The translations under genes were made by a program, and so were the position numbers. Of a stretch of 18,379 nucleotides of DNA, positions 3,779-18,379 are shown piece by piece (position 1 is the stretch's first letter; every line of letters starts with the position of its first letter). The notes under the pieces are model-generated. The model searched no databases and was not told the DNA's origin. It was given only the letters and a program-made list of their open reading frames with translations. Origin of the DNA: a virus (Duplodnaviria; Heunggongvirae; Uroviricota; Caudoviricetes); the IMG/VR virus record IMGVR_UViG_3300000944_000006, positions 1 to 18,379 of that record. One strand, written 5' to 3'.

Positions 3779-3783
3779 GAAAA

Positions 3784-3791
3784 TATTTATA
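3784..3791 (-). promoter_or_regulatory. T4-type late promoter TATAAATA for gp5
   Basis: Exact TATAAATA on the minus strand, 5 nt upstream of ATG 3778. Confidence 0.85.
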
Positions 3792-3802
3792 TACGAATAT
3801 TA

Positions 3803-5797: not shown

Positions 5798-5802
5798 GGT
5801 AT

Positions 5803-5985
5803 TTACTGCTGTTGTTGTTTCTCTTGCTCTTTATTGTGCTTGTTTAATATGCCAATGTAAACGTCACGTTCCCAAAGAACCATATTTTCAAGTTCTGTTA
5901 AAGAATATTTATAAGCATTAATGAGTACAGCATTTGTTTCAAAATAACTGTCTAGGTCAAATTCCTTGACCGTTAGGACAAAAAA
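5803..5985 (-). CDS. gp51: gp51-like hub assembly protein, probably made as the -1 frameshift extension of gp26
   Basis: Frame reads FFVLTVKEFDLDSYFETNAVLINAYKYSLTELENMVLWERDVYIGILNKHNKEQEKQQQQ*. YSLTELENMxxWERDxY is the gp51 motif. No ATG/GTG/TTG precedes the motif. Not in the ORF track. Confidence 0.82.
   Translation of the reverse strand, partial: FFVLTVKEFDLDSYFETNAVLINAYKYSLTELENMVLWERDVYIGILNKHNKEQEKQQQQ
5906..5913 (-). promoter_or_regulatory. Late promoter TATAAATA inside gp51, upstream of the tape measure gene
   Basis: Exact octamer about 110 nt before TTG 5797; it overlaps the AYKY codons, so it could be coincidental. Confidence 0.5.
5955..5985 (-). other. Putative -1 programmed ribosomal frameshift signal (T-TTT-TTG plus hairpin)
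   Basis: Heptamer at 5985-5979, 7-nt spacer, then stem GGTCAA/TTGACC with a 5-nt loop (5971-5955). A -1 shift joins gp26 to the gp51 frame. Confidence 0.75.
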
Positions 5986-6698
5986 TCGTCAAAACCTTTG
6001 ACAGATATTTCGTTGTCCTTACTACAACCTATACAATTAAATTTAGTTTTTATTTCAACAAGTGGCATTGAAGATATAGCTTTTTCAAGTTCTGTCATTT
6101 GCGTCATGTTAAAGCTGTTAAACCACTCTTCAAATTCATCTTCTGATATATCAGATGCAGGCGTAACACTGTCCTTTGTATAAATCTTTTCGACGGAAAG
6201 TTTCATAAGCTGAAATTGTCTATCAACTTCATTATCGTAATTTTTATACACAAAAATAATATCGTTATATGTAAGAAGACGAACTTTTATACCAATATCA
6301 TCTTTAAGAGTAACGTCTGTTATGCGTTTATCGTTTTTTTCGTTTTGAATATTAACATCTGTATCAAGGTCGATTTCTACTTCATTTGATAATTCGCAGT
6401 GTTCACAAGGGATATTATACACATCACGCGAACCAGAAGAAATCATTTTTAATTTTAAAAAGGCCATTTCAAAGTCAGCAATAGGCAATGTTTTAAAATC
6501 TATTTTTTCGCCACTATTAAGACGGTCAAGAATACTAATAACTGTTTCCAGTTTACTTTCGATATCGTCTTCGTCTGTTGTTAGTGATGATGATGCAATT
6601 GCTTTTACGTCTCCTACCTTCATAGGGGAAAGCTTCAATACTTTTCCTGTAATGGGAAGTGTATATACATTTATTGATGATGAAATATTAGGTAACAT
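5973..6698 (-). CDS. gp26: gp26-like baseplate hub assembly chaperone
   Basis: YTLPITGKVLKLSPMKV, LPIADFEMAFLKLKMISSG, CEHC and CIGC pairs, and a C-terminal VKGFDDFL match the T4 gp26 family. Confidence 0.88.
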   Translation of the reverse strand: MLPNISSSINVYTLPITGKVLKLSPMKVGDVKAIASSSLTTDEDDIESKLETVISILDRLNSGEKIDFKTLPIADFEMAFLKLKMISSGSRDVYNIPCEHCELSNEVEIDLDTDVNIQNEKNDKRITDVTLKDDIGIKVRLLTYNDIIFVYKNYDNEVDRQFQLMKLSVEKIYTKDSVTPASDISEDEFEEWFNSFNMTQMTELEKAISSMPLVEIKTKFNCIGCSKDNEISVKGFDDFLS

Positions 6699-7232
6699 TT
6701 ATAGACTCGTTTCTCTGCGCCATTTCTTGAATGACATCGTGATTGTTAAAAGGGCAAGTGTGCTTTGTGATTCGGCTGAAAAGTCTATATTCCCTACGAC
6801 AGATGGATAGACGCCTGTGAAATAAATTTCGTCTATAGGATTATCCATATCGTCTAAGTGAATAAACTTCATGTCCGTTGTATATTCTTTCCAAAATTTC
6901 TGGATTGTTCCTAAATTTGGATTGAAAATTGATGCTTGCCAATCATCAAAAAATTTCTTTATACGGTAATCTTTATCTAAAAGTATCGTTAAAGTAACCG
7001 ATTCATATTGTTCACTATAAGCTAGTTGTAGAAACTTACCAACTTTAATATCACTTGTAGTAAGATTCTTACCACCAATATTCGCGTTTCTGACATAGCA
7101 AGAAAGTAAATCAATATCATTTACCGAATACTCGTCCCTTAGAAATTCAGGTATTGTCAGAATAGTTTGAAATCTATTGACTTGTGCAGGCGGGTTATCC
7201 GTTATTTTTCTACTAAATTCGTTGATATTCAT
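6699..7232 (-). CDS. gp54: gp54-like tail tube initiator (gp19 tube fold)
   Basis: NRFQ, YESVTLTILLDKDYRIKKFFDDWQ, FTGVYPSVVGNIDFS and ITMSFKKW are tube-family motifs; gene lies between gp2 and gp26. Confidence 0.75.
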   Translation of the reverse strand: MNINEFSRKITDNPPAQVNRFQTILTIPEFLRDEYSVNDIDLLSCYVRNANIGGKNLTTSDIKVGKFLQLAYSEQYESVTLTILLDKDYRIKKFFDDWQASIFNPNLGTIQKFWKEYTTDMKFIHLDDMDNPIDEIYFTGVYPSVVGNIDFSAESQSTLALLTITMSFKKWRRETSL

Positions 7233-7918
7233 TATTTCTTCTTACGTGTGCTTCGTTTGTTTTTACGCGATTCTCTTTTAGCGGCCTTAATCGCGTTCTT
7301 TGATTCTACCCAAACTTCTTTCTTAGAAGCTTTAGCAAAACGTTCAGAAGGCAATAGTGTAGCTTTAATCCAATCGTCAGGATGTATAAGCATATATTTA
7401 GAACGCACCTGTGAACGTAGATATTTTTTTACACAAGGCCTTACTTCTGGATATTTAGAAACGTTCTTTAATATTTTCCATGATATCAATACTTTTGTTC
7501 GTGCGTCAAAGCGATTATCACTTGCAAGAAGTTGCATTTTATCAAGTAGAATAATACGTTGTTTCAAAGGTAAATAATGCATATTAATACCCCATATATA
7601 TTTAGCGTCTCTATGGAATACCCATGTCAAAGGAAATCTATCATAATAAGGTAATGTCTTCTTATGTTTCGCGTCATAAAACCAATGATATAATTTACCA
7701 ACCATAACATTTTGCCTGTGACGGCGTTTTTCAGAAAGATACAAGCCCTTTTCATTGATAGCACCTAATTGTTTAACTTGTTCTTTCCACCATTCAGTAG
7801 ATAACCTACGCGCTGCGTTACCTGCTTTTCGTTCTAACTGTCTAAAGACAGATTTATTACGTCCTGCTGTTCCAAGGGCGCTTTGAACATCGTTCCAATA
7901 TTGTGTTTCATCATCCAT
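7232..7918 (-). CDS. gp2: DNA end protector protein
   Basis: GKLYHWFYDAKHKKTLPYYDRFPL, GINMHYLP and CVKKYLRSQVRS are gp2-family motifs. Confidence 0.92.
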   Translation of the reverse strand: MDDETQYWNDVQSALGTAGRNKSVFRQLERKAGNAARRLSTEWWKEQVKQLGAINEKGLYLSEKRRHRQNVMVGKLYHWFYDAKHKKTLPYYDRFPLTWVFHRDAKYIWGINMHYLPLKQRIILLDKMQLLASDNRFDARTKVLISWKILKNVSKYPEVRPCVKKYLRSQVRSKYMLIHPDDWIKATLLPSERFAKASKKEVWVESKNAIKAAKRESRKNKRSTRKKK

Positions 7919-7923
7919 ATATG

Positions 7924-7931
7924 TATTTATA
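7924..7931 (-). promoter_or_regulatory. Late promoter TATAAATA for gp2-gp54-gp26
   Basis: Exact octamer 5 nt upstream of ATG 7918. Confidence 0.85.
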
Positions 7932-8178
7932 TTCCAAACTCAAAAAAATGTATGCTGAATATCTTAGAATTTGGATATTTTTTAACTCTTCCATAAAATG
8001 TCACATTTTTAATATATAATGTATCATGCAAATCGTAACAGCCTTCGTAGCCAAGAATACCTTCTTCTAAACTGTCATCATTGAAAACTGTGTCGTATAA
8101 TGCGCCTGTTTCACAATGAAAAAGTGTAAATTCTTCCTTAAAATAAATGAAGTCGCCTTGTATTGTTGCTTTCGTCAT
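7927..8178 (-). CDS. Hypothetical protein (83 aa), possibly a remote member of the YKYK-TG family
   Basis: ORF fills the gap between gp2 and gp27 and follows a late promoter. N-terminus TKATIQGDF loosely resembles KFKLQGKL. Confidence 0.6.
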   Translation of the reverse strand: MTKATIQGDFIYFKEEFTLFHCETGALYDTVFNDDSLEEGILGYEGCYDLHDTLYIKNVTFYGRVKKYPNSKIFSIHFFEFGI

Positions 8179-8186
8179 AGTGTTTC

Positions 8187-8198
8187 TATTTATAAATA
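8187..8198. promoter_or_regulatory. Overlapping divergent late promoters (palindrome TATTTATAAATA)
   Basis: TATAAATA on + at 8191-8198 (ATG 8210) and on - at 8194-8187 (ATG 8178). Confidence 0.78.
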
Positions 8199-8209
8199 CA
8201 CTTGAAATT

Positions 8210-9985
8210 ATGAGTAATTTAGACGGAATCCGATTTTCAACCGAGTATGAACTACTCGAAGCGACACTTAATACACCAGATGGTAACAGCTACGAAATAG
8301 CTGATATTATCGTTGCGTTAGAAATTGTAGAAGATATTACCAAGCCCTTTATAAAGGGAAGTATAGGCATCCAAGACGCAGTAGGCTTTGTTTCGCAGAA
8401 TATTAATGGTGGTGAAGAATTTATATTAAGATTTAAAACAAAATCTGCCCCGATGGAATATGAATTTAGTAAGACTTTTCGTGTCTATGAAATATCAAGA
8501 CGTGAACAAAAGCAAGCCAAGACATTATACTGGCAGGTAGAAATCATTTCAGAAGAATTTGTTAAGAACATCGACACAAAGATTTCACGCGCGTTCAATA
8601 ACCAATATACTTATCAAATCATACAAAACATTCTTACTAATGATTTAGAAACAGACCAAGATTTTGATTTTGAGCAAGACACTGACATACAAAATTATGT
8701 TATACCGTACATGCATCCTTTTGAAGCTATCAATTTCTTTAAAACACGGTCTATAAATGATAATAGTAATGCATCATTCTATTTCTTTGAAAATAGGGAT
8801 GGTTTTAAATTTATGTCGCTTGAAGGATTAAATCAAAAAACGCCTGTTGAATTTTTTCACAAGCCCTATGGATTTAGTGAACCATTTGCCAGACATAATT
8901 TTGTTGAAGATTTTTTCCCAACAGAAATGGCATATGACAATATTCTTGAAAATAAGAAATCTGGCCTTGAAGGTACACACGGAACTTATATAGAATTGAC
9001 AGAAAAGCGCGTCTTTACGCAAGGTGATAATAGAGCATCACAATTCATTAAAGTTTTTTCGAAAGACCAAGACAATCTTTCTCGAAAATGGTTAGAAAGT
9101 CGCGCGAAGAATATTTCTGATTTTGAAAGTATAAATTATACATTTCATATGAACGGTTCAACACTTCGTACTGTCGGGGATACTTTTAGATTTAATTTGC
9201 CTGCTGCACATACAGACACGACAGGGTTTCTTGAACAGGATGAAAAGCTTGATGGTGTCTGGATTATGAAGCGTATCAAGCATGATATTGTAGGCACTGT
9301 GTATAAACAACATATCGAAGCGTGTAAATTTGAAGGGAATTTGATTGTAACAAATGAAGAAAGGCCAAATAATCTTACGAGTGACCGTGAAGAATATACT
9401 GAAAATGTTACGCGCGAACGTGGTATGAACTGTAATCCACAAGACCTTTCGCCGCGTGGAAGATTAGAAATAATGTCTCATGAAGGTATTGTCATACGGC
9501 GCTATCGTGACACGCAAGGTGTCTGGACAATAGGATTAGGTGTAACACGCTTTGCAGGTGCGTCTATTAATCCAGAACGTTTTACAGGGTTTATATCAGA
9601 AGACCAAGCATTTGACTTGTTCGATGAAGTCATACAGCAATATATAGATGGTGTAAATCGTGCAAAAGAATGTGTTGATTTAACACAAGAAGAATTTGAT
9701 GCTTTGGTATCACTTGCGTATAATGTCGGGGAAAATTTAGGGCCAAAGACTATAGAATATATTCGTGATGGTCGTGTGGTTGATGCTATTAATCTATGGC
9801 GAGCAAATCCAGAATTACAAGAAAGACGTGATAGAGAAGTTACGCTTGCATCTACTGGAACATATTCTGGACGATTTATAAACGTACACACCGCCGATGA
9901 AGACGGTGTGTTAGACTTAAGACCAATACGTTCTATAAGAATTAATAACGGTAACGTTGAAGATTCTGGGGAACTAATTGTTTAA
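8210..9985 (+). CDS. gp27: gp27-like baseplate hub protein fused to a C-terminal GH24 lysozyme (591 aa)
   Basis: The N-terminal ~395 aa have hub-type motifs (EDITKPFIKGSIGIQD, YFFENRDGFKFMSLEGL, LDGVWIMKRIKH). The C-terminal part has HEGIVIRRYRDTQGVWTIG (E-x8-D-x5-T at 9482/9509/9527) and EFDALVSLAYNVG. ATG 8210 follows a late promoter. Confidence 0.82.
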   Translation: MSNLDGIRFSTEYELLEATLNTPDGNSYEIADIIVALEIVEDITKPFIKGSIGIQDAVGFVSQNINGGEEFILRFKTKSAPMEYEFSKTFRVYEISRREQKQAKTLYWQVEIISEEFVKNIDTKISRAFNNQYTYQIIQNILTNDLETDQDFDFEQDTDIQNYVIPYMHPFEAINFFKTRSINDNSNASFYFFENRDGFKFMSLEGLNQKTPVEFFHKPYGFSEPFARHNFVEDFFPTEMAYDNILENKKSGLEGTHGTYIELTEKRVFTQGDNRASQFIKVFSKDQDNLSRKWLESRAKNISDFESINYTFHMNGSTLRTVGDTFRFNLPAAHTDTTGFLEQDEKLDGVWIMKRIKHDIVGTVYKQHIEACKFEGNLIVTNEERPNNLTSDREEYTENVTRERGMNCNPQDLSPRGRLEIMSHEGIVIRRYRDTQGVWTIGLGVTRFAGASINPERFTGFISEDQAFDLFDEVIQQYIDGVNRAKECVDLTQEEFDALVSLAYNVGENLGPKTIEYIRDGRVVDAINLWRANPELQERRDREVTLASTGTYSGRFINVHTADEDGVLDLRPIRSIRINNGNVEDSGELIV

Positions 9986-10097
9986 TATAGTCTTGCGCGA
10001 CCACACGCGGAATATCGTCAAAAGCTTTGTTTAAAAGCTGATTATTTTCAGCTTGATATTCATCATCTTCAAGTAACAGTTCGTCTAATTGTGGCAT
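9942..10097 (-). CDS. Small acidic hypothetical protein (51 aa)
   Basis: Strong SD AAGGAG before ATG 10097 and a sigma70-like promoter upstream; overlaps the 3' end of gp27 by 44 nt on the opposite strand. Confidence 0.6.
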   Translation of the reverse strand: MPQLDELLLEDDEYQAENNQLLNKAFDDIPRVVAQDYIKQLVPQNLQRYRY

Positions 10098-10129
10098 ATT
10101 GATTTCTCCTTTTTTCTCAATACATGTTG

Positions 10130-10158
10130 TATATAACAACATCATTCAAGCTTGTCAA
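10130..10158 (-). promoter_or_regulatory. Host sigma70-type promoter TTGACA-17-TATATA, overlapped by the palindrome TGTTGT-N5-ACAACA
   Basis: TTGACA at 10158-10153, 17-nt spacer, TG-N-TATATA ending at 10130. Confidence 0.6.
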
Positions 10159-10426
10159 ACTGAAAATCAATAATATTTCGACATTTTACTTCTATGTAAA
10201 TTTTCTCCTCTTTAAATTCAGACGGGTCTAGCTTCTTATTGGTTATGATGTAAATTGTGTATTTTTTACCTACTTCAAACAAATTTTTCCATCTTTTCTC
10301 ACTTATATTATATATTATAAGTGATACTTTATTTTCTTCTTTACTATAGAAATAGATTCTTTTAATATGCGAATAGTTTAAGAATCTACCAGTTATTTTA
10401 TATTTGTAACATTTCTTATTAAACAT
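10142..10426 (-). CDS. YKYK-TG family paralogue (94 aa)
   Basis: YKYKITGRF ... GKKYTIYI; part of a tightly packed run of five genes. Confidence 0.8.
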   Translation of the reverse strand: MFNKKCYKYKITGRFLNYSHIKRIYFYSKEENKVSLIIYNISEKRWKNLFEVGKKYTIYIITNKKLDPSEFKEEKIYIEVKCRNIIDFQFDKLE

Positions 10427-10428
10427 GT

Positions 10429-10725
10429 CTATATCTTCTTTACAGATACATTATGCATATCATCTGACATTATTTCATGAACAACAGCAGAGTCTTTGGT
10501 GTTGATTGATGTGTATATAGTGTTTTCGCCCGTCTCGAAAGACAGTTCAACTTTATTTCCAACACTTTTTATAAGGTCTTCTGACTGCGGTATCTTTGAT
10601 AGATATGCGTTTATATCAAGCACAACAGGTGTCCCGCCACTACTCTTTGACATAACCTTATATGCGCTACCAAATTTACCATCGAATGACGTAAGTTTGC
10701 CTTGTAATTTAAATTTCTTTATCAT
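10429..10725 (-). CDS. YKYK-TG family paralogue, diverged (98 aa)
   Basis: KKFKLQGKL ... VLDI ... GNKVELSFET; ATGA overlap with the upstream gene. Confidence 0.78.
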   Translation of the reverse strand: MIKKFKLQGKLTSFDGKFGSAYKVMSKSSGGTPVVLDINAYLSKIPQSEDLIKSVGNKVELSFETGENTIYTSINTKDSAVVHEIMSDDMHNVSVKKI

Positions 10726-10985
10726 AATATTTCTGCCAAATGTGTAATGTTAAACACATGGTCTTGGCAGATATCGTAAGAAAAATAATTCATTTCATAG
10801 CTTGTAGTGAAGTAGATGCGATACTTAGTATGAAGATTAAAATCATATGTATTTAGAAATATATCCTTTACGATACTTATTAAATAATGTCCATTTTCAG
10901 GCGCATTTAATATAAGAACATGATACCTGCCACATTCAACATACCCTTCAATGAAATATTTGTATAATTTATTTGTATCAGTCAT
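10722..10985 (-). CDS. YKYK-TG family paralogue (87 aa)
   Basis: YKYFIEGYV ... KYRIYFTT; overlaps both neighbours. Confidence 0.78.
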   Translation of the reverse strand: MTDTNKLYKYFIEGYVECGRYHVLILNAPENGHYLISIVKDIFLNTYDFNLHTKYRIYFTTSYEMNYFSYDICQDHVFNITHLAEIL

Positions 10986-11316
10986 TAATCGCTATCTTTA
11001 TGATTTTAGCTTCGTCATTAAATAAGTCTACATGTATGGATTTGTGTATAGTTTCTGTTTCATCTGTGTTTGGTAAAAGAGCAACATCAGGGATAGAATC
11101 TTTCGATATGTTATTGCATTCAACATAAACCGATATGCTTTTTTGTAAAAGATTTTTAAACAAGTCATAAAGATTGACGACATGAAGAACATTGATATGA
11201 TATGAAATATTACTATCAAAGGATATTTCCATTCCTAGTTCATCATCATAATTATATAATACAACCCATTGAGAACCTATTTCAACAATTTTGCCTGTGA
11301 ATTGAATTTTATACAT
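10978..11316 (-). CDS. YKYK-TG family paralogue, diverged (112 aa)
   Basis: MYKIQFTGKI ... SISVYVE; 8-nt overlaps with both neighbours. Confidence 0.75.
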   Translation of the reverse strand: MYKIQFTGKIVEIGSQWVVLYNYDDELGMEISFDSNISYHINVLHVVNLYDLFKNLLQKSISVYVECNNISKDSIPDVALLPNTDETETIHKSIHVDLFNDEAKIIKIAIND

Positions 11317-11608
11317 CTATAATTTCCATATTATCTATTTGGATATCTTCAAAAAAGATTTCTTTTGTTGCAAATATTATATCACGATAAAAATAATATG
11401 CATTATTTTTTACCACAAAATACACTCTTAGGATTTGACCTGTAGAAAAAGGAAGCATATGGTAGCTTGGCATGTTAGTTATTCTAAATTTGAATTGTTC
11501 AGTGCGTGTATCTTCATGACTGTAAAATCCTAAAACGCTATTAGATTCACTGTAGAAAATATAGCCTTCGATATATAATTTTTTGGGCAGTTTTGGCATC
11601 TTCGACAT
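11309..11608 (-). CDS. YKYK-TG family paralogue, diverged (99 aa)
   Basis: KKLYIEGYI ... GQILRVYF; first gene after gp53. Confidence 0.72.
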   Translation of the reverse strand: MSKMPKLPKKLYIEGYIFYSESNSVLGFYSHEDTRTEQFKFRITNMPSYHMLPFSTGQILRVYFVVKNNAYYFYRDIIFATKEIFFEDIQIDNMEIIDV

Positions 11609-11640
11609 AATAACAGTAAATCATAATAATAAAATTAGTT

Positions 11641-12111
11641 TTAAGTATTATACAGTTCTCGTTCGTATTCGTCAACAAATGTTTTTAAATATTGTGGCCG
11701 TAAAATTCTTATTACACGTTTGTCTTCATTACGTTTTATAGCGATATCAAGGTTTGTGACAGCCGTACCAAGACCTTCTTTATTGATAAGCCCATCATCA
11801 TCCAGATAATGTGCAACTTCATGTGGATTTTCTGTTAACGCAAGAACTTCGTCTTCAGTTCTATACCAACCAAAATACGGGTCTATGATTTCATTATACA
11901 GTAAGACGACCCAATGAAAATCTTGTGAACCATAAAATTTAAAAGACACATCTTCAGGACGTTCGTTGTGCTTGATATTATACAATGTGAAAACCGCTCT
12001 ATCATCATCAACGCCTGCCTTGAAATAAAGACGTGTCATAACATCTGTTAAAACCTGCGTTTGATTGTCAGGTGTTTTGTAATATAAAAATGGATAGTTT
12101 CTAAACAACAT
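11641..12111 (-). CDS. gp53: Baseplate wedge subunit (LysM-like)
   Basis: FRNYPFLYY, YNIKHNERPEDVSFKFYGSQDFHWVVLLYNEIIDPY. Confidence 0.92.
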   Translation of the reverse strand: MLFRNYPFLYYKTPDNQTQVLTDVMTRLYFKAGVDDDRAVFTLYNIKHNERPEDVSFKFYGSQDFHWVVLLYNEIIDPYFGWYRTEDEVLALTENPHEVAHYLDDDGLINKEGLGTAVTNLDIAIKRNEDKRVIRILRPQYLKTFVDEYERELYNT

Positions 12112-12114
12112 TTT

Positions 12115-13086
12115 TTAGAAACCTGCTAACACGTCATCGCGCATAATAAGTTCTGTTTCTGTAAAGTCTAAATTCATTTCTAATTCAGCAGGAAACCCAT
12201 TCTTATATGATGCAAAATTTCCAAGTGTAGAATAATTGACAGTAATCGTGTTCATCACGCAGTTTTTTACTTTTGGTATAAAAGGGTTTTCTATTATGTC
12301 GCCATTAGGGTCTTTTAAAAGAAATCTTAGTTTAAATTCGGAAGGCATGATAAAATAGTTATCACTTGCGGAAAATTGTTGACCGCGTTCTGCTGTACTT
12401 CTGACGCGATTGTCCGCATCAAATACTTCTGTATTCCCTACGAAATTTTCTGGTGAAGATGAACGGCGCAAAATTCGTATTAAGTCGTATATAGAATCGC
12501 AATCTGCTTCTTCCAAAGGTGACATACGAAATGAGAAGTTAAACGTTCTTAAGTTTGGTTCGCGGTAAAGAACTTCTAAATGTGGACTTGAAACTTTACG
12601 TCTAGCAGCATCTTGTGCATCACGCAATTGATTACTGCCTATACTTGCTATTCCGCGACCTGATGAATTGGCAATATCGCCTGCAAATCGTGAACCGTGA
12701 TTTTTTATTTTATCTAAAAAACTGTCGCTTGTATCCCCGTCTCTAAATGTACGAAAAACACCTACATCAGTTCCTTCCCATGAATGTGAAGACGAAAAGT
12801 TCATATTGAATGGCGCGGGTAAATAAATTGTTTCGTGCTGTATGCGTCTTTGTGCATTTACAGATGATTGTGTGTTTGCAATAGACGTTGTGCGTGACAC
12901 AGAAGCTGTTTCGCCATCAACAGGCAATTCGTTACCGCGCGGGGTTACTGTTCCATCAAAAGTTTGTGGAAGGACTTCAATAACGGATATCGCCATGATA
13001 TTTTCATATTCGTTCTCAATACCAAGCAGTTCTTGTGGATATTGTACGTTTCTTGATAATGTTTGATTTGAAAGTTGTGTAGGCAT
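12115..13086 (-). CDS. gp48: Baseplate tail tube cap
   Basis: IYLPAP, PHLEVLYREPNLRTFNFSFRMSP, MPSEFKLRF, KNCVMNTITVNYS and GFPAELEMNLDFTETE are gp48 motifs. Confidence 0.92.
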   Translation of the reverse strand: MPTQLSNQTLSRNVQYPQELLGIENEYENIMAISVIEVLPQTFDGTVTPRGNELPVDGETASVSRTTSIANTQSSVNAQRRIQHETIYLPAPFNMNFSSSHSWEGTDVGVFRTFRDGDTSDSFLDKIKNHGSRFAGDIANSSGRGIASIGSNQLRDAQDAARRKVSSPHLEVLYREPNLRTFNFSFRMSPLEEADCDSIYDLIRILRRSSSPENFVGNTEVFDADNRVRSTAERGQQFSASDNYFIMPSEFKLRFLLKDPNGDIIENPFIPKVKNCVMNTITVNYSTLGNFASYKNGFPAELEMNLDFTETELIMRDDVLAGF

Positions 13087-13091
13087 ATTTT

Positions 13092-13099
13092 TATTTATA
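13092..13099 (-). promoter_or_regulatory. Late promoter TATAAATA for gp48-gp53
   Basis: Exact octamer 5 nt upstream of ATG 13086. Confidence 0.85.
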
Positions 13100-13114
13100 T
13101 GCCTTGAATGTCGT

Positions 13115-13122
13115 TATAAATA
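13115..13122 (+). promoter_or_regulatory. Late promoter TATAAATA for the gp4-like gene
   Basis: Exact octamer 5 nt upstream of ATG 13128. Confidence 0.85.
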
Positions 13123-13127
13123 ACTTT

Positions 13128-13635
13128 ATGGCACATAAATCAAGATACACACCGTTAAATGAAGAAAAATATTTTGGGGAAGGAGAAATCATTTGTCGTA
13201 GTTCATGGGAACGCGCCATTTGTCGTTACTTTCGATAATACTACTTCTGTTGTGCAATGGTCATCAGAACCTTTTGCTGTACCCTATAAAAAGCCGTATA
13301 GCAGGCGTCTAAACGGCATTCACCGATATTATCCAGACTTCCTTATAGAATTAGAAAATGGTCGTAAGCTACTTTTGGAAATAAAGCCCAAACACGAAAC
13401 TCTTCCGCCTGTAAGACGTAAAAACCAAAAAAGAAAGACATTTGCTAGGCAGAAACTAACATTTCTAGTGAACCAAGCTAAATGGAAATCTGCAAGAGCA
13501 TTTTGTGCTAAGAATGGTTTAGAATTTCAAGTATGGACAGAAGACCACATAAAGTCACTAGGCATTAAGATTGTTTCGGGAACAACTAAGCGAAAGACAA
13601 CAGCAAAGAAGAAAAAGACTGCTAAGAAGCCTTAA
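13128..13635 (+). CDS. gp4: Head completion nuclease (gp4/gp50, TnsA-like PD-(D/E)xK), split by a +1 frame change at 13230-13238
   Basis: First frame: MAHKSRYTPLNEEKYFGEGEIICRSSWERAICRYF(R*). +1 frame: FDNTTSVVQWSSEPFAVPY..HRYYPDF..LLEIKP..VNQAKWKSA..FQVWTE. Joined, they give a complete ~168-aa protein. Confidence 0.85.
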
Positions 13636-13921
13636 ACACTAATTTTTGAACATTAAATGTTGGGTCTTTGTTGTAAAAAAAGTACGGGCCGCTAATAGTA
13701 TCACCACACATAGTGTCAGTTGTGAAATAAATTTCAACGAATTTGTCATGATGTATATGTCGAGTTTTTTTGCACATTTGTAAATGTCTTATATCAACTT
13801 TTAAAACAGTTGTGTACACTCTGCTACTAGGATAATTTATAAAAGCATATTGAGATACTACACCATCAATGTCGATATAAAAATCGCTGTTTATCTGTCC
13901 TGTGAATTTATATTTGTACAT
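13622..13921 (-). CDS. YKYK-TG family paralogue (99 aa)
   Basis: MYKYKFTGQIN..AFINYP..VLKVDI..FVEIYFTT. Confidence 0.85.
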   Translation of the reverse strand: MYKYKFTGQINSDFYIDIDGVVSQYAFINYPSSRVYTTVLKVDIRHLQMCKKTRHIHHDKFVEIYFTTDTMCGDTISGPYFFYNKDPTFNVQKLVFKAS

Positions 13922-13925
13922 GTCT

Positions 13926-14213
13926 TTAATCTTTAAATTCTAAGTGTTTTACTACAAGTGTTTCGTCGCCATTGTATGAATAATAGCTTGAATGCGGTAT
14001 AAGAAACGATTTTTTGTTAGAAACCTGTGTCGTGAAGTAAATTTCTATAAGTTTTCCGCGATTCTTTTCTATCATTTCCTTACACATGTTTAGATGAAAA
14101 ATATCAATTTTCAAAACCTTTATACGGGATTTTATATATACGAAAGCTTTTTTATTTTTATTTGGCTTGCTATAATCTCCTATAGTGCCTACAAATTTAT
14201 ATTTGTAAATCAT
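13926..14213 (-). CDS. YKYK-TG family paralogue (95 aa from ATG 14213)
   Basis: MIYKYKFVGTI..VLKIDI..LIEIYFTT; ATGA overlap with the 14210 stop. Confidence 0.85.
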   Translation of the reverse strand: MIYKYKFVGTIGDYSKPNKNKKAFVYIKSRIKVLKIDIFHLNMCKEMIEKNRGKLIEIYFTTQVSNKKSFLIPHSSYYSYNGDETLVVKHLEFKD

Positions 14214-14398
14214 GGCATCTTCCAATCGGCAGGAATAATACCGCCCGCTTTTAGTTCTTCCAAAGCTTCTATAAGACACAGTTCATCTGTCTTACCCCAA
14301 CCGACATCAGGGTAAGCATCATCATATATGCGAATGCTACGCGCGCGTTCTTTAACAACTGCGACACGTAGCTTTTGTAGTTCGTCGTGTATCAACAT
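14210..14398 (-). CDS. Hypothetical protein (62 aa)
   Basis: Packed between neighbours with a coupled stop/start. Confidence 0.65.
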   Translation of the reverse strand: MLIHDELQKLRVAVVKERARSIRIYDDAYPDVGWGKTDELCLIEALEELKAGGIIPADWKMP

Positions 14399-14404
14399 CT
14401 TCTT

Positions 14405-14746
14405 CTAAAGACCTAGAAATTCGATTTGTTCAAGTGCAGCTTCGACATTTAAATATGTTTCTTGCATTTCTTGGAGAACTTTCTTGTTTCCGCGATTCAT
14501 TTCTTTCAAAAGAATTGCTTTGTGCTTGTGTTTCCCAAAGATTTCTGTCCGAAATGACGCGCCATATTTGTCAGTGCGATATTCACCACCTGTCAAAGAC
14601 ATATAAATCCCACGCGGCCCATTACGACCACGACCATCTTTTTCGTAGCTTACAGACATTCTGATATGCTCACCGCCAAATAATTCACTCACAAATGTAA
14701 GGCCGTTTTCGCGTCTTCCGACAATTTCATTAATTTCATTCTTCAT
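14405..14746 (-). CDS. Hypothetical phage protein (113 aa)
   Basis: SD-like GGGAG upstream; natural-looking protein (SVSYEKDG..RGIYMSL). Confidence 0.75.
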   Translation of the reverse strand: MKNEINEIVGRRENGLTFVSELFGGEHIRMSVSYEKDGRGRNGPRGIYMSLTGGEYRTDKYGASFRTEIFGKHKHKAILLKEMNRGNKKVLQEMQETYLNVEAALEQIEFLGL

Positions 14747-14768
14747 CTCATGTTCTCCCGAAAAGATT

Positions 14769-14792
14769 AAAAAGACCGCCGAATGACGGCCT
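14769..14792 (-). terminator. Rho-independent terminator
   Basis: AGGCCGTC-ATTC-GGCGGTCT stem with G-U pairs, followed by TTTT; 16 nt after stop 14809. Confidence 0.7.
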
Positions 14793-14808
14793 TAAGTATT
14801 AAATGGGG

Positions 14809-15171
14809 TTAGTCCCAACGACTTTGAGCATAGGCTTTCAAACCGATTTTAGTAAGTTCTTCAGCAACAATATCCTGCCAAGCTTTTTTGATATCAATGT
14901 TCTGAACGAGACGTGCAAGACCGTTGCCGCGCGTCCAGTTCTGATACCCGCCGTTGTAAGACTTTTTAAATTCTTCTTACTTAGCAACGATTTTACCGAT
15001 TTTTGAACGTCCATCAATAACGATTTTTGTCCAAGCAAATCCACATGGATATTGGTCATCTTCGCGTGTATATTTCGCGTCAATAGCGGCATCAGCTTTC
15101 GCATAGATTTCTGTCATAAGCGTATTAAACTGCGCGACAGTAGTGATTTGGGCAATGTCTGTAATGGTCAT
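14809..15171 (-). pseudogene. CGFAW-motif phage protein (120 codons) with an internal TAA at codon 65
   Basis: SD GAGGAG. ..PCGFAWTKIVIDGRSKIGKIVAK*EEFKKSYNGGYQNW..QNIDIKKAW..LTKIGLKAYAQSRWD* continues in the same frame up to the terminator. Confidence 0.7.
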
Positions 15172-15203
15172 GATTTCTCCTCTTCAGAACCTTTCCTACA
15201 TAT

Positions 15204-15236
15204 ATTGTATGCCATAGTTTGTTGTGTTTTACAACA
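15204..15236 (-). promoter_or_regulatory. Early-type promoter (TATGG-NN-TACAAT) with the palindrome TGTTGT-N5-ACAACA over the -35 region
   Basis: TACAAT at 15209-15204, TATGG at 15216-15212, palindrome at 15220-15236; upstream of the SD-led gene at 15171. Confidence 0.55.
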
Positions 15237-15262
15237 TAAGTTTTATTACAATTTTGTAATGT

Positions 15263-15472
15263 TTAAGAAATTATTTTTAATGAAACAATATTTTCGCTAT
15301 GCACATCAAGCCAAGACTTCCTCATATCTTCATCTATCAATTGTTTATACGGAACCTTAGATATTAAATATATTGTGTAAAAATTTCCTTCTTCTTTGCC
15401 TGTGTTAGGGAAATTTATATACGCGTTACGATATTCCTTTTCTAACTGTCCTGTTAGTTTATATTTGTACAT
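15263..15472 (-). CDS. YKYK-TG family paralogue, short (69 aa)
   Basis: MYKYKLTGQLE..AYINFP..FYTIYL; the middle segment is absent. Confidence 0.8.
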   Translation of the reverse strand: MYKYKLTGQLEKEYRNAYINFPNTGKEEGNFYTIYLISKVPYKQLIDEDMRKSWLDVHSENIVSLKIIS

Positions 15473-15476
15473 GATA

Positions 15477-15770
15477 TCATTTCACTCTTTTAACATGATA
15501 ATTTAAAATGTCGCTCCATTCTAAATTAATTTGTTTTCTAGTAGATATAGTTTTAACATCTATTATATAGTAAGAAATATCACGCGCCGTCTGGAAATAT
15601 ATTTCTATATATTCACCCTGTTGATACTCTAATAATTGTCGTTGAAAATTTCCTATTCTTAAAACATCTCTATCTTTTGCCATAGCTGTACTAGGATTGT
15701 TTATAAAAATATTTTTTGCAGAATTGTCCATTCCTTTGTTCAACTGACCTGTTAACTTATACTTGTACAT
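15477..15770 (-). CDS. YKYK-TG family paralogue (97 aa)
   Basis: MYKYKLTGQLN..IFINNP..VLRI..GEYIEIYFQT. Confidence 0.85.
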   Translation of the reverse strand: MYKYKLTGQLNKGMDNSAKNIFINNPSTAMAKDRDVLRIGNFQRQLLEYQQGEYIEIYFQTARDISYYIIDVKTISTRKQINLEWSDILNYHVKRVK

Positions 15771-16041
15771 TTGTTGCTCTTTTAATTTTATAATGTAAAA
15801 AATCTTTTTGTTTTATATGAAAGTGGTGTTCGTCAAGAGAAAACTTTTCGTAATGATAGATATCATCTACTAATTCGAAATACAATTCTACAAAATCTTC
15901 TGTGCTATATATGCCTCGTAAGATTGAAGAACAATCTATGTGTAAAACTGTTCTGTCGCCAGTTGTGGTCTGTGGATGATTTAGAAAGAAGTTGCTGCCA
16001 TAGTTATTGATTTGTCCTGTTAATTTATATTTGTATGACAT
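15757..16041 (-). CDS. YKYK-TG family paralogue (94 aa from ATG 16041)
   Basis: MSYKYKLTGQIN..FFLNHP..VLHID..FVELYFE; SD AGGA upstream. Confidence 0.85.
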   Translation of the reverse strand: MSYKYKLTGQINNYGSNFFLNHPQTTTGDRTVLHIDCSSILRGIYSTEDFVELYFELVDDIYHYEKFSLDEHHFHIKQKDFLHYKIKRATNVQV

Positions 16042-16060
16042 AATAAATCCTATTTGGATT

Positions 16061-16089
16061 ATTATAAACCATATGTATAGGTATTTCAA
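16061..16089 (-). promoter_or_regulatory. Sigma70-type promoter TTGAAA-17-TATAAT
   Basis: TTGAAA at 16089-16084, 17-nt spacer containing TATGG, TATAAT at 16066-16061; lies right after the gp32 terminator. Confidence 0.8.
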
Positions 16090-16092
16090 CAT

Positions 16093-16120
16093 AAAAAAAG
16101 ACCCGTAAAACGAGTCTTTT
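16093..16120 (-). terminator. Rho-independent terminator after gp32
   Basis: AGACTCG-TTTTA-CGGGTCT followed by a T-run. Confidence 0.8.
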
Positions 16121-16152
16121 CCACTTAGCAGTAGTAGTGATTAAAATATTTA

Positions 16153-17079
16153 TTAGTCGTCTAATTCAGCTTGAAGTTCTTCAAGAAGATTATCGATTTC
16201 ATCATCGCCAATTTCATCGACTTCTTGTGTGACTACAGATTCTTCAATAACTTCTGCCGTTTGTGGCATAGAATTATCAGGCTCTTTTTTAACATCAACT
16301 ACATCATTACCGCCATCTGTAAAGAAGCGTGATGGGATGTCATCGCTAAATAGTTTTTGAAGCTTTTGATTCAATTCGTCGTAAGGAAGAATATCATCAT
16401 GATTTTCAAATTCTTTTAGAGAATGTTGCTGTGACAGCGTTTCCATAATCTTAGCTTCGTCACCGCCGCCCATAGGAGAAGGCTTTTCGAATTCAGAACC
16501 TGCATAATCTGGGAAATTATTTGTGTTCTTAGCGCAACGTAAAATGAAATCTGCGCCATCGATAGGATGGAAAGGATTAAATTTATGTGCAAATTCGTCT
16601 TTAGGGTTTAAAGCAGATTCAAGCTTTTTGAAAACTGTCGAAGGGATATTGTAAAGAAAAACTTTACCTTCGTTTTCAGGATTTTTTGAATCCTTAATCA
16701 CTTGGATACAGGCAACTTTGCGATATTGTGGTGACATTTTCTTCAGGTACGTTTCCCAAGTATCTTTGTCATCTTTGTATAAACGACCATTCAGGTCATA
16801 TACAGGGTCACGTTCTTCAGGCCCAAGGTTCTTACGCGACTTGCTCACGTAATAACGTGCATTTGGCTTAGAACCGACTTGGATGAAGTAGTTTGTAAAT
16901 TCTACATACGACTTCGCCATGTCTTCTTCGATAGGTGTTAGGAAACGAATCTTTGCAGACCCATTGCCATCAGCATCTTTCGAAAGTTTCCAAAAGCGTG
17001 TGTCTTTTTCATATGTTTTTTTCGTGATTACATTATCTTTATTATCTTCTAATTTCTGTAAAAGTTTATTAAAATCCAT
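16153..17079 (-). CDS. gp32: Single-stranded DNA-binding protein
   Basis: DTRFWKL..DGNGSAKIRFL, VIKDSKNPENEGKVFLY, FNPFHPIDGADFIL and an acidic C-terminal tail. Confidence 0.96.
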   Translation of the reverse strand: MDFNKLLQKLEDNKDNVITKKTYEKDTRFWKLSKDADGNGSAKIRFLTPIEEDMAKSYVEFTNYFIQVGSKPNARYYVSKSRKNLGPEERDPVYDLNGRLYKDDKDTWETYLKKMSPQYRKVACIQVIKDSKNPENEGKVFLYNIPSTVFKKLESALNPKDEFAHKFNPFHPIDGADFILRCAKNTNNFPDYAGSEFEKPSPMGGGDEAKIMETLSQQHSLKEFENHDDILPYDELNQKLQKLFSDDIPSRFFTDGGNDVVDVKKEPDNSMPQTAEVIEESVVTQEVDEIGDDEIDNLLEELQAELDD

Positions 17080-17677
17080 TTATTTTTTTCCTTATTATTT
17101 TTTTAATGGTTTTTGGTTCCTTCAAAAAAGGACATGCTTGTTGAACTAAGTAAATATTACTTTTGTAGATATTATTATTTTGGTAATACTTGCTGTAAAA
17201 CTTAGCAGTAAGTCCTAGTGCTTTGTCCACGCACATGAAGGTTTGGGCGTGGATATTTTCACCGAAAACGTCTTCTAGTATTTTCGGTAAGAATTTCTGT
17301 TTGTCGACCATAACGTATTCTTTGAACGAATCAATAGCTAATAAGTCTTTTTCGACGATTTTTTCAAGATTGTTTTGGATTTTTTTCCATTTTTCATAAT
17401 GCTGTTTGGCATATGGCTTTTTAAGTTCGTTCGCAGACCAAGCATTCTTGTTCTCGTAAAAATTATATGCAACAACACGTATCTTGAAATCTTCAAGCGT
17501 GTCGGTTTTCATAAAATGTTGGAAGGCGTATCTATCCGAACGCTTACGGAATGTATCAGGTAGAGTCTTCACACTACCTTTATATTTAAAGTAATCGTAG
17601 TTGTTATCTTTTTTGAAATGTAAATTTATAGCAAGAAAAGATTTAAAATAGTCTTCGGGGGTTACTTGTGGTGTTAT
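17069..17677 (-). CDS. gp59: Helicase loader (202 aa from a probable ATA start at 17677)
   Basis: The frame upstream of GTG 17572 encodes ITPQVTPEDYFKSFLAINLHFKKDNNYDYFKYKG, the gp59 N-terminal motif; gene lies upstream of gp32. Confidence 0.85.
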   Translation of the reverse strand: MTPQVTPEDYFKSFLAINLHFKKDNNYDYFKYKGSVKTLPDTFRKRSDRYAFQHFMKTDTLEDFKIRVVAYNFYENKNAWSANELKKPYAKQHYEKWKKIQNNLEKIVEKDLLAIDSFKEYVMVDKQKFLPKILEDVFGENIHAQTFMCVDKALGLTAKFYSKYYQNNNIYKSNIYLVQQACPFLKEPKTIKKIIRKKINGF

Positions 17678-17721
17678 TGTTGTTTACCTATGCGTTTCGT
17701 AACTTCTTCTTCATTCCGACC

Positions 17722-17750
17722 TAGATACTTGGTATCGGTTTTCTTGTCAA
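17722..17750 (-). promoter_or_regulatory. Sigma70-like promoter TTGACA-17-TATCTA upstream of gp59
   Basis: TTGACA at 17750-17745, 17-nt spacer, TATCTA at 17727-17722. Confidence 0.5.
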
Positions 17751-17768
17751 CCACAATAACGTATTCAT

Positions 17769-17900
17769 TTACATCATTTTTGAAAAAATTAAATGTTTCG
17801 AAACATGTCTTGTACAGCGTCTAATTTTTAGGACAGGCGAATTTTTATGCTCGTCCTTTATAGGCGCTTCAAGTGTCTTATCGTAATCTTTCACAATCAT
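17769..17900 (-). CDS. Possible 43-aa hypothetical protein
   Basis: ATG 2 nt after the gp33 stop, with GGAAG upstream; below the ORF-track size cut-off. Confidence 0.35.
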   Translation of the reverse strand: MIVKDYDKTLEAPIKDEHKNSPVLKIRRCTRHVSKHLIFSKMM

Positions 17901-17902
17901 AT

Positions 17903-18136
17903 TTATTCTTCCATCTTTAAAAGTTTAAGGCTTGATGCTTCTTTTTCCAATATTGTTTTCAAATTATCGTTAATATAGAAGCGCATTTTCTGAACAGGTA
18001 TTTCATTTTTCGCACACCAATCTATGATGTATTCCATATGTGTTATGTCAGGGTCTTTTTCAACTTCTTTGATTACCATTTCTGAAAAGTTTTGCTTCTT
18101 AGTTGGCGTGTTTTGGTTCTTTACAGATTTCTTCAT
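17903..18136 (-). CDS. gp33: Late transcription co-activator
   Basis: FSEMVIKEV..MEYIIDWCAKNEI..INDNLKTILEKEASSLKLLK; located upstream of gp59-gp32. Confidence 0.85.
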   Translation of the reverse strand: MKKSVKNQNTPTKKQNFSEMVIKEVEKDPDITHMEYIIDWCAKNEIPVQKMRFYINDNLKTILEKEASSLKLLKMEE

Positions 18137-18144
18137 ATTTTATG

Positions 18145-18342
18145 TTATGGTTTCCTTGGCTTTCTTTGGTGATGCGAACAAAAATCTGTGGAATTTACTA
18201 TTGGTCTTACGGATAAAAAATCTTCGTTTGACATATCATTTCCTAAATTTGTTCTGTGAAAAACTTTAGGTGGATTAAGAAAACATGTCCCATCGTAGCC
18301 ATTGCCGTAATAAAATTTACAATCTTTGCAAGTATCGGACAT
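18145..18342 (-). CDS. Small Cys-rich hypothetical protein (CxxC..C..PP..RP..DFC)
   Basis: CKDC, CFLNPP and DFCSHH suggest a metal-binding module. Confidence 0.75.
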   Translation of the reverse strand: MSDTCKDCKFYYGNGYDGTCFLNPPKVFHRTNLGNDMSNEDFLSVRPIVNSTDFCSHHQRKPRKP

Positions 18343-18379
18343 ATATTACACAAACTTTTCTATAACAAATAATATGGCA

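Follow-up and report, generated by a model that had tools for sequence, protein, structure and literature searches.

In T4-like phages, small genes of the early and accessory classes make up the largest pool of genes of unknown function among the well-studied phage groups. In the hyperplastic regions of T4-type phages, accessory genes are placed between conserved core modules (PMC2839356, PMC4122927). A lineage-specific expansion of one small protein has been described for Bacillus phage G, which contains about 35 copies of a zinc ribbon (PMC7824862). Here, we describe a multigene family known from a single phage genome, which has at least 26 members with a predicted OB-type beta-barrel. It resembles the phage G zinc ribbons and the T4-type hyperplastic ORFans in that many diverged copies of a small protein are present, in tandem and between core modules, and likewise in that the role is presumed to be adaptive or conflict-related. 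It differs from the phage G expansion in that the protein is an OB barrel instead of a zinc ribbon, the genome is about one third of the size and the share of the genes is higher (about 11-13%). Compared with the PeSL cassettes of hyperplastic regions, the genes within an array overlap or are 1-4 nt apart, leaving no room for a promoter plus stem-loop, and promoter-like sites are present only at the head of some arrays. Moreover, in contrast to all these expansions, other genomes yielded no relatives: when profiles were searched exhaustively against 1.84 billion representative proteins, which stand for ~15 billion predicted proteins, only the copies of the phage's own genome were returned, and collection scans did not reveal relatives beyond it either.

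Staphylococcal superantigen-like proteins (SSLs) are encoded in a tandem paralogue cluster, and its members bind different host proteins. The OB domains of SSLs and superantigens (TSST-1, 4ohj; SSL7, 2qej) are structural neighbours of the phage proteins at Z 5.0-5.7, but they are part of secreted bacterial two-domain proteins (OB plus beta-grasp) that have no sequence relation to the phage family. Potempin A of Tannerella forsythia (PDB 8b2m/8b2n) is a minimal OB peptidase inhibitor of 98 residues, and potempins, which are diverged paralogues with 4-14% identity, inhibit via their beta2-beta3 and beta4-beta5 loops (PMC9890683). Like potempin A, the phage proteins are predicted to be single-domain OB barrels of ~95-98 residues (Foldseek TM 0.55, VIA Z 5.9). 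However, potempins are secreted lipoproteins with a signal peptide, each co-transcribed with its target peptidase, and the phage proteins have neither; there is also no sequence similarity to potempin A, and its Z is no higher than that of other OB-folds. SSB and PriB (PF00436; 1kaw, 1eyg, 4fdb) are five-stranded OB barrels of ~100 residues in which a helix separates beta3 from beta4, an architecture that is also predicted for the phage proteins, and OB domains of this type account for many of the structural neighbours; unlike SSB/PriB, the phage proteins lack an acidic C-terminal tail and a profile match, and the phage encodes gp32. Finally, Aeromonas phages 25 and 44RR contain a split gene 43 (43A/43B), in which the family-B polymerase is encoded by two cistrons separated by a seg homing endonuclease gene or an untranslated spacer (PMC2988022). 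In the genome studied here, the insert is an OB member.

Size of the family and membership of the ten ORFs

The window, i.e., the whole stretch of 18,379 nt that was analysed, is the opening 18.4 kb of the complete 151-kb genome of an uncultured T4-like phage from one algae metagenome. A run-level search located this genome sequence in one DNA run only, and all family counts rest on this single metagenomic genome. The ten ORFs that a sequence-only reading had proposed as paralogues are all present, on the minus strand (Table 1). When an HMM was iterated over the full set of 420 ATG-ORFs in the genome, with the reversed and shuffled ORFs used as controls peaking at ~12 bits, the family proved to exceed these ten ORFs: at least 26 robust members are present at 13 places, and the 26 take up ~5% of the DNA and account for 11% of the genes. 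Beyond these there are ~5 probable members, which brings the total to probably about 31, with the window contributing 8 to 10 copies. In a phage of 151 kb, a single fold copied at least 26 times thus accounts for about one gene in ten. We consider it very probable that the expansion is real and that the family has an OB-fold.

Table 1. Positions of the ten ORFs and of putative expression signals in the window.
Feature	Position	Strand	Length (aa)	Leave-one-out score	Description
p1	10142..10426	-	94	24.0 bits	robust; last gene in the five-gene array
p2	10429..10725	-	98	25.3 bits	robust
p3	10722..10985	-	87	15.5 bits, E 4.6e-4	robust yet divergent; N-terminus K-L-Y-K-Y-F-I-E-G
p4	10978..11316	-	112		possible, very divergent
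p5	11309..11608	-	99		probable, divergent; first gene of the array
p6	13622..13921	-	99	36.8 bits	robust; BLASTP against p7 3e-15
p7	13926..14213	-	95	31.5 bits	robust
p8	15263..15472	-	69	24.2 bits	short member; no beta3/helix segment in the alignments
p9	15477..15770	-	97	48.1 bits	robust
p10	15757..16041	-	94	50.3 bits	robust; leads the array downstream of gp32
sigma-70-like motif	11647..11675	-			TTGACG, 17 nt, TATAAT; 11/12; consensus match only
sigma-70-like motif	16061..16089	-			TTGAAA, 17 nt, TATAAT; 11/12; consensus match only
terminator-like hairpin	14772..14793	-			between the p10-p8 array and the p7-p6 pair

The proposal of ten paralogues held for eight ORFs, which are robust members; p5 is a probable member and p4 a possible one. 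ORFs p6-p10 are mutually related by plain BLASTP (E 1e-5 to 1e-15). ORFs p1-p3 were recruited in the second round of the HMM iteration and still matched the profile from which they had been excluded; hhalign against the family gave probabilities of 98% and 97% for p1 and p2, respectively. ORF p5 is borderline (HMM 11 bits, E 0.011; hhalign P 0.0044 over 91 columns), and was recruited, with 37.5 bits, under a relaxed iteration threshold only. ORF p4 has no HMM support (E 2.3), and hhalign gave P 0.0017-0.007 over 58 columns. Its N-terminus contains the MYKxxFTGK motif of the family, it is located within the tandem array, and its AF2 model (pLDDT 74.7) has the same strand order and OB-fold neighbours, although this model was guided by the family MSA and hence is not independent of it.

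Members are typically ~95 residues long, with an identity of ~20%. The reading that they are more AT-rich than core genes proved correct: their GC content is 28.8%, compared with 34.7% in ORFs of >=200 aa (p 5e-10) and 32.1% in the other small ORFs (p 1e-4). Translational coupling was also borne out, tandem junctions ranging from -14 to +4 nt; for example, p3 overlaps p2 by 4 nt, p4 overlaps both p3 and p5 by 8 nt, and the start of p7 is coupled (ATGA) to an upstream 62-aa ORF at 14210-14398. The 3' end of p6 overlaps the convergent gp4 gene by 14 nt. The genes start with a 5' motif, ATG-TAC-AAA-TAT-AA, whose out-of-frame TAA terminates the upstream copy; except for their first 15-25 nt, the copies differ along their whole length. 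None of the 26 frames is interrupted, despite a probability of ~0.001 that a random 95-codon frame at this composition remains open, which points to selection maintaining them.

Conserved motifs and predicted fold

The motifs noted initially were found to be family-wide in part: the N-terminal Y-K-Y-K-hydrophobic-x-G, the I-Y-F-T strand and the terminal strand recur across members, whereas IN-x-P and VL-x-ID are limited to a subgroup. Column conservation reaches 96% for K3, 92% for G8 and 85% for F59, and K3, Y4 and K5 in beta1 and the aromatic pair Y58 and F59 in beta4 are kept across members. The similarity extends past the N-terminus, motifs in the middle of the protein and at its C-terminus being conserved as well. 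In agreement with the idea of a conserved scaffold with a variable surface, conservation is mostly found at the hydrophobic core positions of the strands, and the loops show indels and low conservation. The pI of the members ranges from 4.2 to 9.8. As a counterpoint to reading the copies as binders of different targets (see below), K3, K5 and the beta4 aromatic pair could equally make up a common patch for a nucleic acid or a partner.

The small OB-like beta-barrel that had been suggested was recovered, as a match at fold level only, in the AF2 model of the family, which is that of p9 (pLDDT 84.4, pTM 0.72). The model contains strands at 2-12, 21-25 and 35-40, a helix at 44-48, and strands at 54-61, 79-84 and 88-95; this predicted order, beta1-beta2-beta3-helix-beta4-beta5, is that of an OB-fold. 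The N-terminal motif is modelled as barrel strand beta1 (pLDDT ~94). Structural neighbours in PDB, BFVD, AFDB and ESM Atlas are nearly all OB-folds, none of them outstanding, and the matches are weak (Z <=6.7, Foldseek E ~4e-3). These matches to a predicted structure identify the fold only. Most of these OB neighbours are nucleic-acid binders, including SSB, PriB, RPA, Teb1, CST, MCM and aaRS anticodon OB domains, and the leading neighbours listed include the protein-binding OB scaffolds potempin A and TSST-1 (Z 5.7).

The family had not been recognised from its sequence, and profile searches of Pfam, PHROGs, NCBIfam and PDB likewise gave no consistent match. For the SSB family (PF00436), there was no Pfam or PDB-profile match; for an SSB-type homo-oligomer, the predicted complex of two copies scored 0.00, in a program in which the fold itself was poor. 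The cold-shock domain (PF00313; RNP1/RNP2) had no Pfam match in any of the 26 members; K-L-T-G presumably resembles strand beta1 of CspA. Frd.2 (PF03197) is encoded next to gene 32 in T4. One of the 26 members matched PF03197 below the threshold (E 0.0046; 18 bits, the cut-off being 29), and hhalign of the family against T4 frd.2 gave a probability of 0.3%. A potempin-type inhibitor, with a signal peptide or lipobox and a co-transcribed target peptidase, was set aside on account of the N-terminus, which is modelled as barrel strand beta1, and of the neighbours, which are baseplate, replication and small unknown genes. A T4 internal protein was discarded too; the (L/I)-x-E cleavage motif is missing from most members, and the model places the N-terminus in a core strand.

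Genomic placement and expression signals

As had been proposed, the arrays interrupt conserved modules, those of the window being located between gp53 and the hub/lysozyme gene and between gp32 and gp4. Further arrays are present at gp19/gp23, gp17/gp15, gp15/gp14 and UvsX/gp43. The family thus occupies positions between conserved core modules, as do the PeSL-flanked ORFan cassettes of T4-type hyperplastic regions. Members occur on both strands, with 12 of the 26 on the minority strand (Fisher p 6e-4). Several copies adjoin gp32, UvsX, gp43, a RuvC-like resolvase or an exonuclease gene, and HNH and homing-endonuclease genes are present next to two arrays. The two halves of the DNA polymerase gene are separated by an 83-residue member, with a TAATG overlap at each end. 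In the tree, branches are 1-4 changes per site long; because tandem neighbours are sisters, we conclude that the family was expanded by repeated local tandem duplication. The presence in one genome of 26 robust, diverged paralogues with tandem sisters is what characterizes a lineage-specific multigene family. Long branches and the absence of outside relatives fit rapid evolution.

The sigma-70-like motif closest to p5 is located 39 nt upstream of its start, within the 3' end of gp53, and the other one lies 20 nt upstream of the p10 start; genome-wide, 23 sites score >=11/12. For p10, start 16041 is favoured over 16092, because the promoter-like site ends at 16061 and 16092 would be upstream of the transcript. 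The terminator-like hairpin, with a stem of 9 pairs that includes 5 G-C pairs and with a T-run behind it, is the only one in the region. Within the window, no TATAAATA late promoter was found ahead of the arrays. Elsewhere, TATAAATA at 57511 leads an operon with three members, and another TATAAATA at position 137857 (at 57) precedes member 137993. Judging from these motifs, some arrays look late-transcribed and the family does not appear to be uniformly early.

Possible roles of the family

Our best explanation, which we put forward tentatively, is that the copies are putative binding modules, diversified through variable loops, which would serve in host takeover or counter-defence. The family has expanded through repeated local tandem duplication, and its copies are dispersed over the 13 places, mostly core-gene junctions. 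Beta1 (Y-K-Y-K-L-T-G), beta4 (I-Y-F-T) and the C-terminal hairpin are retained, and the intervening loops differ in sequence and length. Each copy may then be a small, stable binding module whose variable loops, the usual ligand face of OB-folds, recognise a different host or competitor molecule, so that the set as a whole would serve host takeover or counter-defence. The two arrays headed by sigma-70-like promoters may be read early by the host RNA polymerase. Potempin A and the SSLs are a precedent for this reading because they use loops for protein targets. If the copies are target-specific binders, they would offer a natural collection of minimal OB scaffolds as well as a compact toolset for host takeover or counter-defence.

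Alternatively, the proteins might be small nucleic-acid-binding OB proteins, acting as ssDNA/RNA chaperones or regulators via the Lys/Tyr residues of beta1 and the Tyr/Phe pair of beta4, with paralogues tuned to differing sequences or stages. We regard this as rather unlikely, even though the majority of the structural neighbours, the conservation of K3, Y4, K5, Y58 and F59 and the location of several copies beside replication and recombination genes argue for it. No profile match to SSB, CSD, S1 or another nucleic-acid-binding family was found, the conserved aromatics alternate like core positions of the barrel, and 26 copies far exceed any known phage need for ssDNA binding, a normal gp32 already being encoded. 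In addition, the pI of several members is as low as 4.2-4.7; with the overall spread in pI, varied targets fit better than one common nucleic-acid ligand.

It seems improbable that the genes are selfish and self-spreading, moving through recombination at the 5' motif or through nearby homing endonucleases with little benefit to the phage. This would account for the 13 places, mostly junctions of essential genes and often on the opposite strand, for the endonuclease genes adjoining two arrays, for the 5' motif that ends the upstream copy, and for the copy lying exactly between the polymerase gene halves, a position at which other T4-like phages have homing endonuclease genes (PMC2988022). However, the protein contains no domain of a nuclease, integrase or transposase, the sequences differ throughout past the shared 5' end, and the copies, which are very old or fast-diverged, are still all open, whereas decay would be the expected fate of purely selfish ORFs without use in a streamlined phage genome. 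We give an equally small chance to a new intragenomic mobile gene that lacks a nuclease of its own and for which the 5' motif would be a portable junction for translational coupling or recombination; copies would insert between or within essential genes, as in the split DNA polymerase, and then amplify as arrays. If self-spreading, the family would show a nuclease-less gene colonising junctions of essential genes, and the copy between the polymerase halves would be a test case for the origin of split replicative polymerases.

Least probable of all, and by our estimate very unlikely, are virion-associated or injected proteins with the conserved N-terminus as a targeting or processing tag, as in T4 internal proteins: the extreme N-terminus is conserved and the remainder variable, late structural genes surround many copies and TATAAATA late promoters may precede two of the arrays, but the N-terminal motif is modelled as a barrel strand and not as a detachable leader, most members lack the (L/I)-x-E motif of the T4 prohead protease, and conservation is also present in the middle of the protein and at the C-terminus. 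The 5' motif considered above for a mobile gene, with its out-of-frame TAA, avoids the late-promoter word.

Membership and extent of the family

The ten small ORFs that a sequence-only reading had proposed as one family of paralogues (p1 to p5 in an array at 10142-11608, p6 and p7 at 13622-14213, and p8 to p10 at 15263-16041) are all present at these positions on the minus strand. Plain BLASTP shows that p6 to p10 are mutually related (E 1e-5 to 1e-15), and that pairwise similarity among p1 to p5 is weak. An HMM seeded with p6 to p10 was iterated over the 420 ATG-initiated ORFs of at least 50 aa in the whole genome (inclusion E 1e-3). At convergence the set comprised 26 ORFs (69-111 aa), p1, p2 and p3 among them, so that the proposed search of the rest of the genome gives 26 robust members. 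In a stop-to-stop six-frame search, these 26 scored at least 32.8 bits and the next frame 12.8 bits, which is a clean gap. Each member still reached at least 15.5 bits with a leave-one-out profile, and reversed or shuffled ORFs used as controls topped out at about 12 bits. All 26 frames are open, the chance of openness being about 0.001 for each. The family is large and maintained and, among the collections searched, confined to this genome.

The idea of one ten-member family held for eight of the ten ORFs; p5 is a probable and p4 a possible member. The borderline p5 scores 11 bits and aligns across its full length in hhalign (P 0.004); a relaxed threshold adds it together with 37975-38304, 131583-131858, 131855-132115 and 136328-136552, with convergence at 31. 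Inclusion of p4 is suggested by its N-terminal motif, a weak hhalign P value, its place among the overlapping genes of the array, and a model, guided by the MSA, whose strands follow the family order. ORFs at 117939-118848, 119441-119722, 38786-39449, 45588-47315 and 54098 have family-like N-termini and were not counted, as neither HMM nor hhalign supported them. In the six-gene array listed in the Table, two ORFs are robust members, and the other four have K-V-Y-I-E-G-like N-termini with no HMM or hhalign support.

Predicted fold and conserved positions

AlphaFold2, provided with p9 and the 26-sequence alignment, returned a model (pLDDT 84.4, pTM 0.72) in which β1, β2 and β3 are followed by a short helix, β4 and a C-terminal hairpin. 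The OB-like β-barrel suggested earlier from the strand pattern agrees with the structural neighbours of this predicted model, which are almost all OB domains. Foldseek (PDB, BFVD and AFDB clusters) and a shape search of the Atlas retrieved SSB, RPA, aaRS anticodon, tRNA_anti-like and DUF5666 domains, among others, at E values of at least 4e-3 and TM scores of 0.4-0.6. VIA-align against 48,161 chains ranked the NigD-like N-domain (Z 6.7), potempin A (5.9) and TSST-1 (5.7) highest, followed by SSB, PriB, Teb1 and CST, where Z values below 8 may mean merely a common arrangement. Because no neighbour stands above the others and Z remains below 8, we assign a predicted OB-fold to the members, but not a family. 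The ESM Atlas yielded no feature matches; its own model was poor (pLDDT 0.53) and its structural rows were disregarded.

Conservation is seen mostly at core hydrophobic positions, and also at K3 (96%), K5 (85%), G8 (92%) and the pair Y58-F59, in line with the motifs noticed earlier, of which the N-x-P-S/T loop after β2 is present in just about half of the members. Insertions and low conservation fall in the loops, as expected for a conserved scaffold with a variable remainder, and the pI values range from 4.2 to 9.8.

Distribution over the genome and history of the copies

The IMG/VR record, of which the window spans bases 1-18379, comprises 151,219 bp (33.6% GC), has direct terminal repeats and an estimated completeness of 100%. 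The phage is a distant T4-like myovirus. In the window, PHROGs identified gp59, gp32, gp4, gp48, gp53 and a hub/lysozyme protein; the gp32 shares no more than 37.5% identity with that of any deposited phage (top match, Caulobacter phage Cr30). The sequence occurs in a single public run, which dates from 2016 and carries the label algae metagenome, and in none of RNA.

The robust copies amount to 7.5 kb and occupy 13 places; they account for about 11% of the genes, which number roughly 240, and for 4.9% of the DNA. Annotation of their neighbours with PHROGs located the arrays between core genes, and they do interrupt conserved modules. Copies lie between gp53 and the hub gene, gp32 and gp4, an endolysin-like gene and a PD-(D/E)XK exonuclease, a RuvC-like resolvase and an HNH endonuclease, UvsX and the polymerase region, tail tube gp19 and a homing endonuclease adjoining gp23, the terminase and gp15, gp15 and gp14, and gp14 and gp13. 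The plus strand carries 12 of the 26 members, as against 33 of the 215 remaining ORFs (Fisher p 6e-4). The impression of AT-richness was correct (GC is 28.8% in members, 34.7% in large ORFs and 32.1% in the remaining small ORFs), and so was that of translational coupling, with tandem members overlapping by 1-14 nt or standing 1-4 nt apart.

In a maximum-likelihood tree, tandem neighbours are sisters and terminal branches measure 1-4 changes per site, which shows that local duplication was followed by deep divergence. The closest pairs are just 35-39% identical in protein, and synonymous sites are therefore saturated.

Search for relatives

As the sequence-only reading had stated, the members belong to no recognised family: Pfam, PHROGs and NCBIfam gave scattered sub-threshold matches, each to a single member. 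The family profile found nothing below E 0.1 among PDB sequences. A weak Pfam FRD2 match on p10 and the position beside gene 32, which p10 has in common with T4 frd.2, led us to consider homology to Frd.2; when the family was aligned with T4 frd.2 in hhalign, the probability was 0.3%, and homology was rejected. When 1.84 billion representatives were searched exhaustively with the profile, 26 matches at E ≤1e-3 were returned, of which 25 are proteins of this genome; the sole foreign one, a 1109-aa repeat protein, was taken as spurious. Megablast searches of phage records with the region, and word-index protein searches for which the family and two single members were the queries, were empty or returned only the genome itself. 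The proposed IMG/VR search, which also covered JGI metagenomes and was made by DNA and peptide pattern scans, revealed no relatives. A search for close relatives of gp32 likewise gave nothing outside this genome, and the only MCP relative (43% identical) is on a 9.4-kb fragment that carries no member. Profiles built from one genome have limited reach, and the collections contain no close relative of this phage.

That small proteins can expand within single lineages is already known. Phage G contains about 35 zinc-ribbon copies, termed unprecedented by the authors (PMC7824862), and hyperplastic regions of T4-type phages are also filled by ORFan genes (PMC2839356, PMC4122927). Compared with phage G, the family described here takes a higher gene share in a much smaller genome; it is also scattered through structural modules, and no relatives were found elsewhere. 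It is the predicted OB-fold family that is undescribed, and not the expansion of small proteins as such. Its interest is raised somewhat by the number of copies counted over the whole genome, by the outcome of the exhaustive search and by the copy that splits the polymerase (see below); the proposed function stays a candidate.

Possible functions of the copies

Our tentative reading is that the copies may be diversified binding modules for host takeover or counter-defence. The variable loops of the predicted OB barrels would form the binding surfaces, diversified among the copies. The nearest worked example of a loop-acting minimal OB barrel is potempin A, which acts through its β2-β3 and β4-β5 loops (PMC9890683).

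Binding of nucleic acids, which we consider somewhat unlikely, would fit the kinds of domain that predominate among the structural neighbours, the conservation of Lys and aromatic residues, and the replication genes that adjoin copies.

Selfish spread of the family is improbable in our view; the positions of the copies between essential genes point to it, and so does the DNA polymerase. The coding sequence of the family-B polymerase gp43 is divided in two (genome 97066-99889, outside the window); its N half corresponds to positions 7-498 of PHROG 262 and its C half to 498-851. Exactly between the halves is a family member of 83 aa, with AGTAATG overlaps linking it to each of them; in other T4-like phages, homing endonuclease genes occupy such split sites (PMC2988022).

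That the N-terminus tags the proteins for the virion is very improbable, since it is a core strand of the predicted model. A capsid-targeting leader was rejected on the same ground, and also because most members lack the (L/I)-x-E cleavage motif of T4 prohead protease targets and because motifs in the middle and at the C-terminus are conserved too.

Expression signals and the 5' coding motif

The presence of a gp33-type coactivator (Table) leads us to expect T4-style late transcription in this phage. Late-promoter words TATAAATA are present upstream of gp48, gp4 and other late genes, and none was found ahead of the arrays in the window. Outside the window, TATAAATA at 57511 heads a three-member operon and another precedes the member at 137993; the timing of expression is therefore probably mixed. 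Sigma-70-like sites scoring at least 11/12 number 23 in the whole genome, and two precede window arrays (Table; p about 0.002 for two sites so placed, a rough estimate of our own).

The DNA encoding Y-K-Y-K was considered as a T4 late promoter and rejected, as the word occurs in no member. The first Tyr codon of Y-K-Y is TAC in 17 of 21 members, compared with a TAC share of 20% over the genome (p 3e-9); for the second Tyr, TAT is used in all cases, 15 of 15 (for example, at window 15770, 16038, 13921 and 15472). Because TAT-AAA-TAT would create TATAAATA, the TAC preference may reflect avoidance of an internal late promoter. Judged from its codons, the N-terminal motif shows conservation at the protein level, since those for Lys, Leu, Thr and Gly vary synonymously. 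The out-of-frame TAA in the 5' words ATG-TA(C/T)-AA(A/G)-TAT-AA is the stop of the upstream paralogue, and gives overlaps of -14 and -8 nt at window 15757-15770 and at five other junctions within arrays of the genome.

Table. Features accompanying the family, with their coordinates
Feature	Position	Strand	Remarks
67-aa ORF	9942-10145	minus	coupled to p1 end; no family match; candidate gene
Sigma-70-like promoter-like site	11647-11675		39 nt before p5; ≥11/12 consensus match
62-aa ORF	14210-14398	minus	between two paralogue groups downstream of gp32; ATGA-coupled to p7
113-aa ORF	14405-14746	minus	between two paralogue groups downstream of gp32
Sigma-70-like promoter-like site	16061-16089		20 nt before p10; ≥11/12 consensus match
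gp33-type late-transcription coactivator	17903-18136	minus	Pfam PF16805, E 3.6e-12
Six-gene array, ORFs 93-105 aa	genome 117939-119722 (outside window)	plus	gp19 to homing endonuclease adjoining gp23

Neither the 62-aa nor the 113-aa ORF has a Pfam or PHROGs match. At its 3' end, the 67-aa ORF shares 44 nt with the convergent hub/lysozyme gene. The divergent genes gp48 and gp4 are separated by a 72-nt gap that contains back-to-back copies of TATAAATA on both strands (13099 minus, 13115 plus; window 13092-13122), which look like a divergent late-promoter pair.
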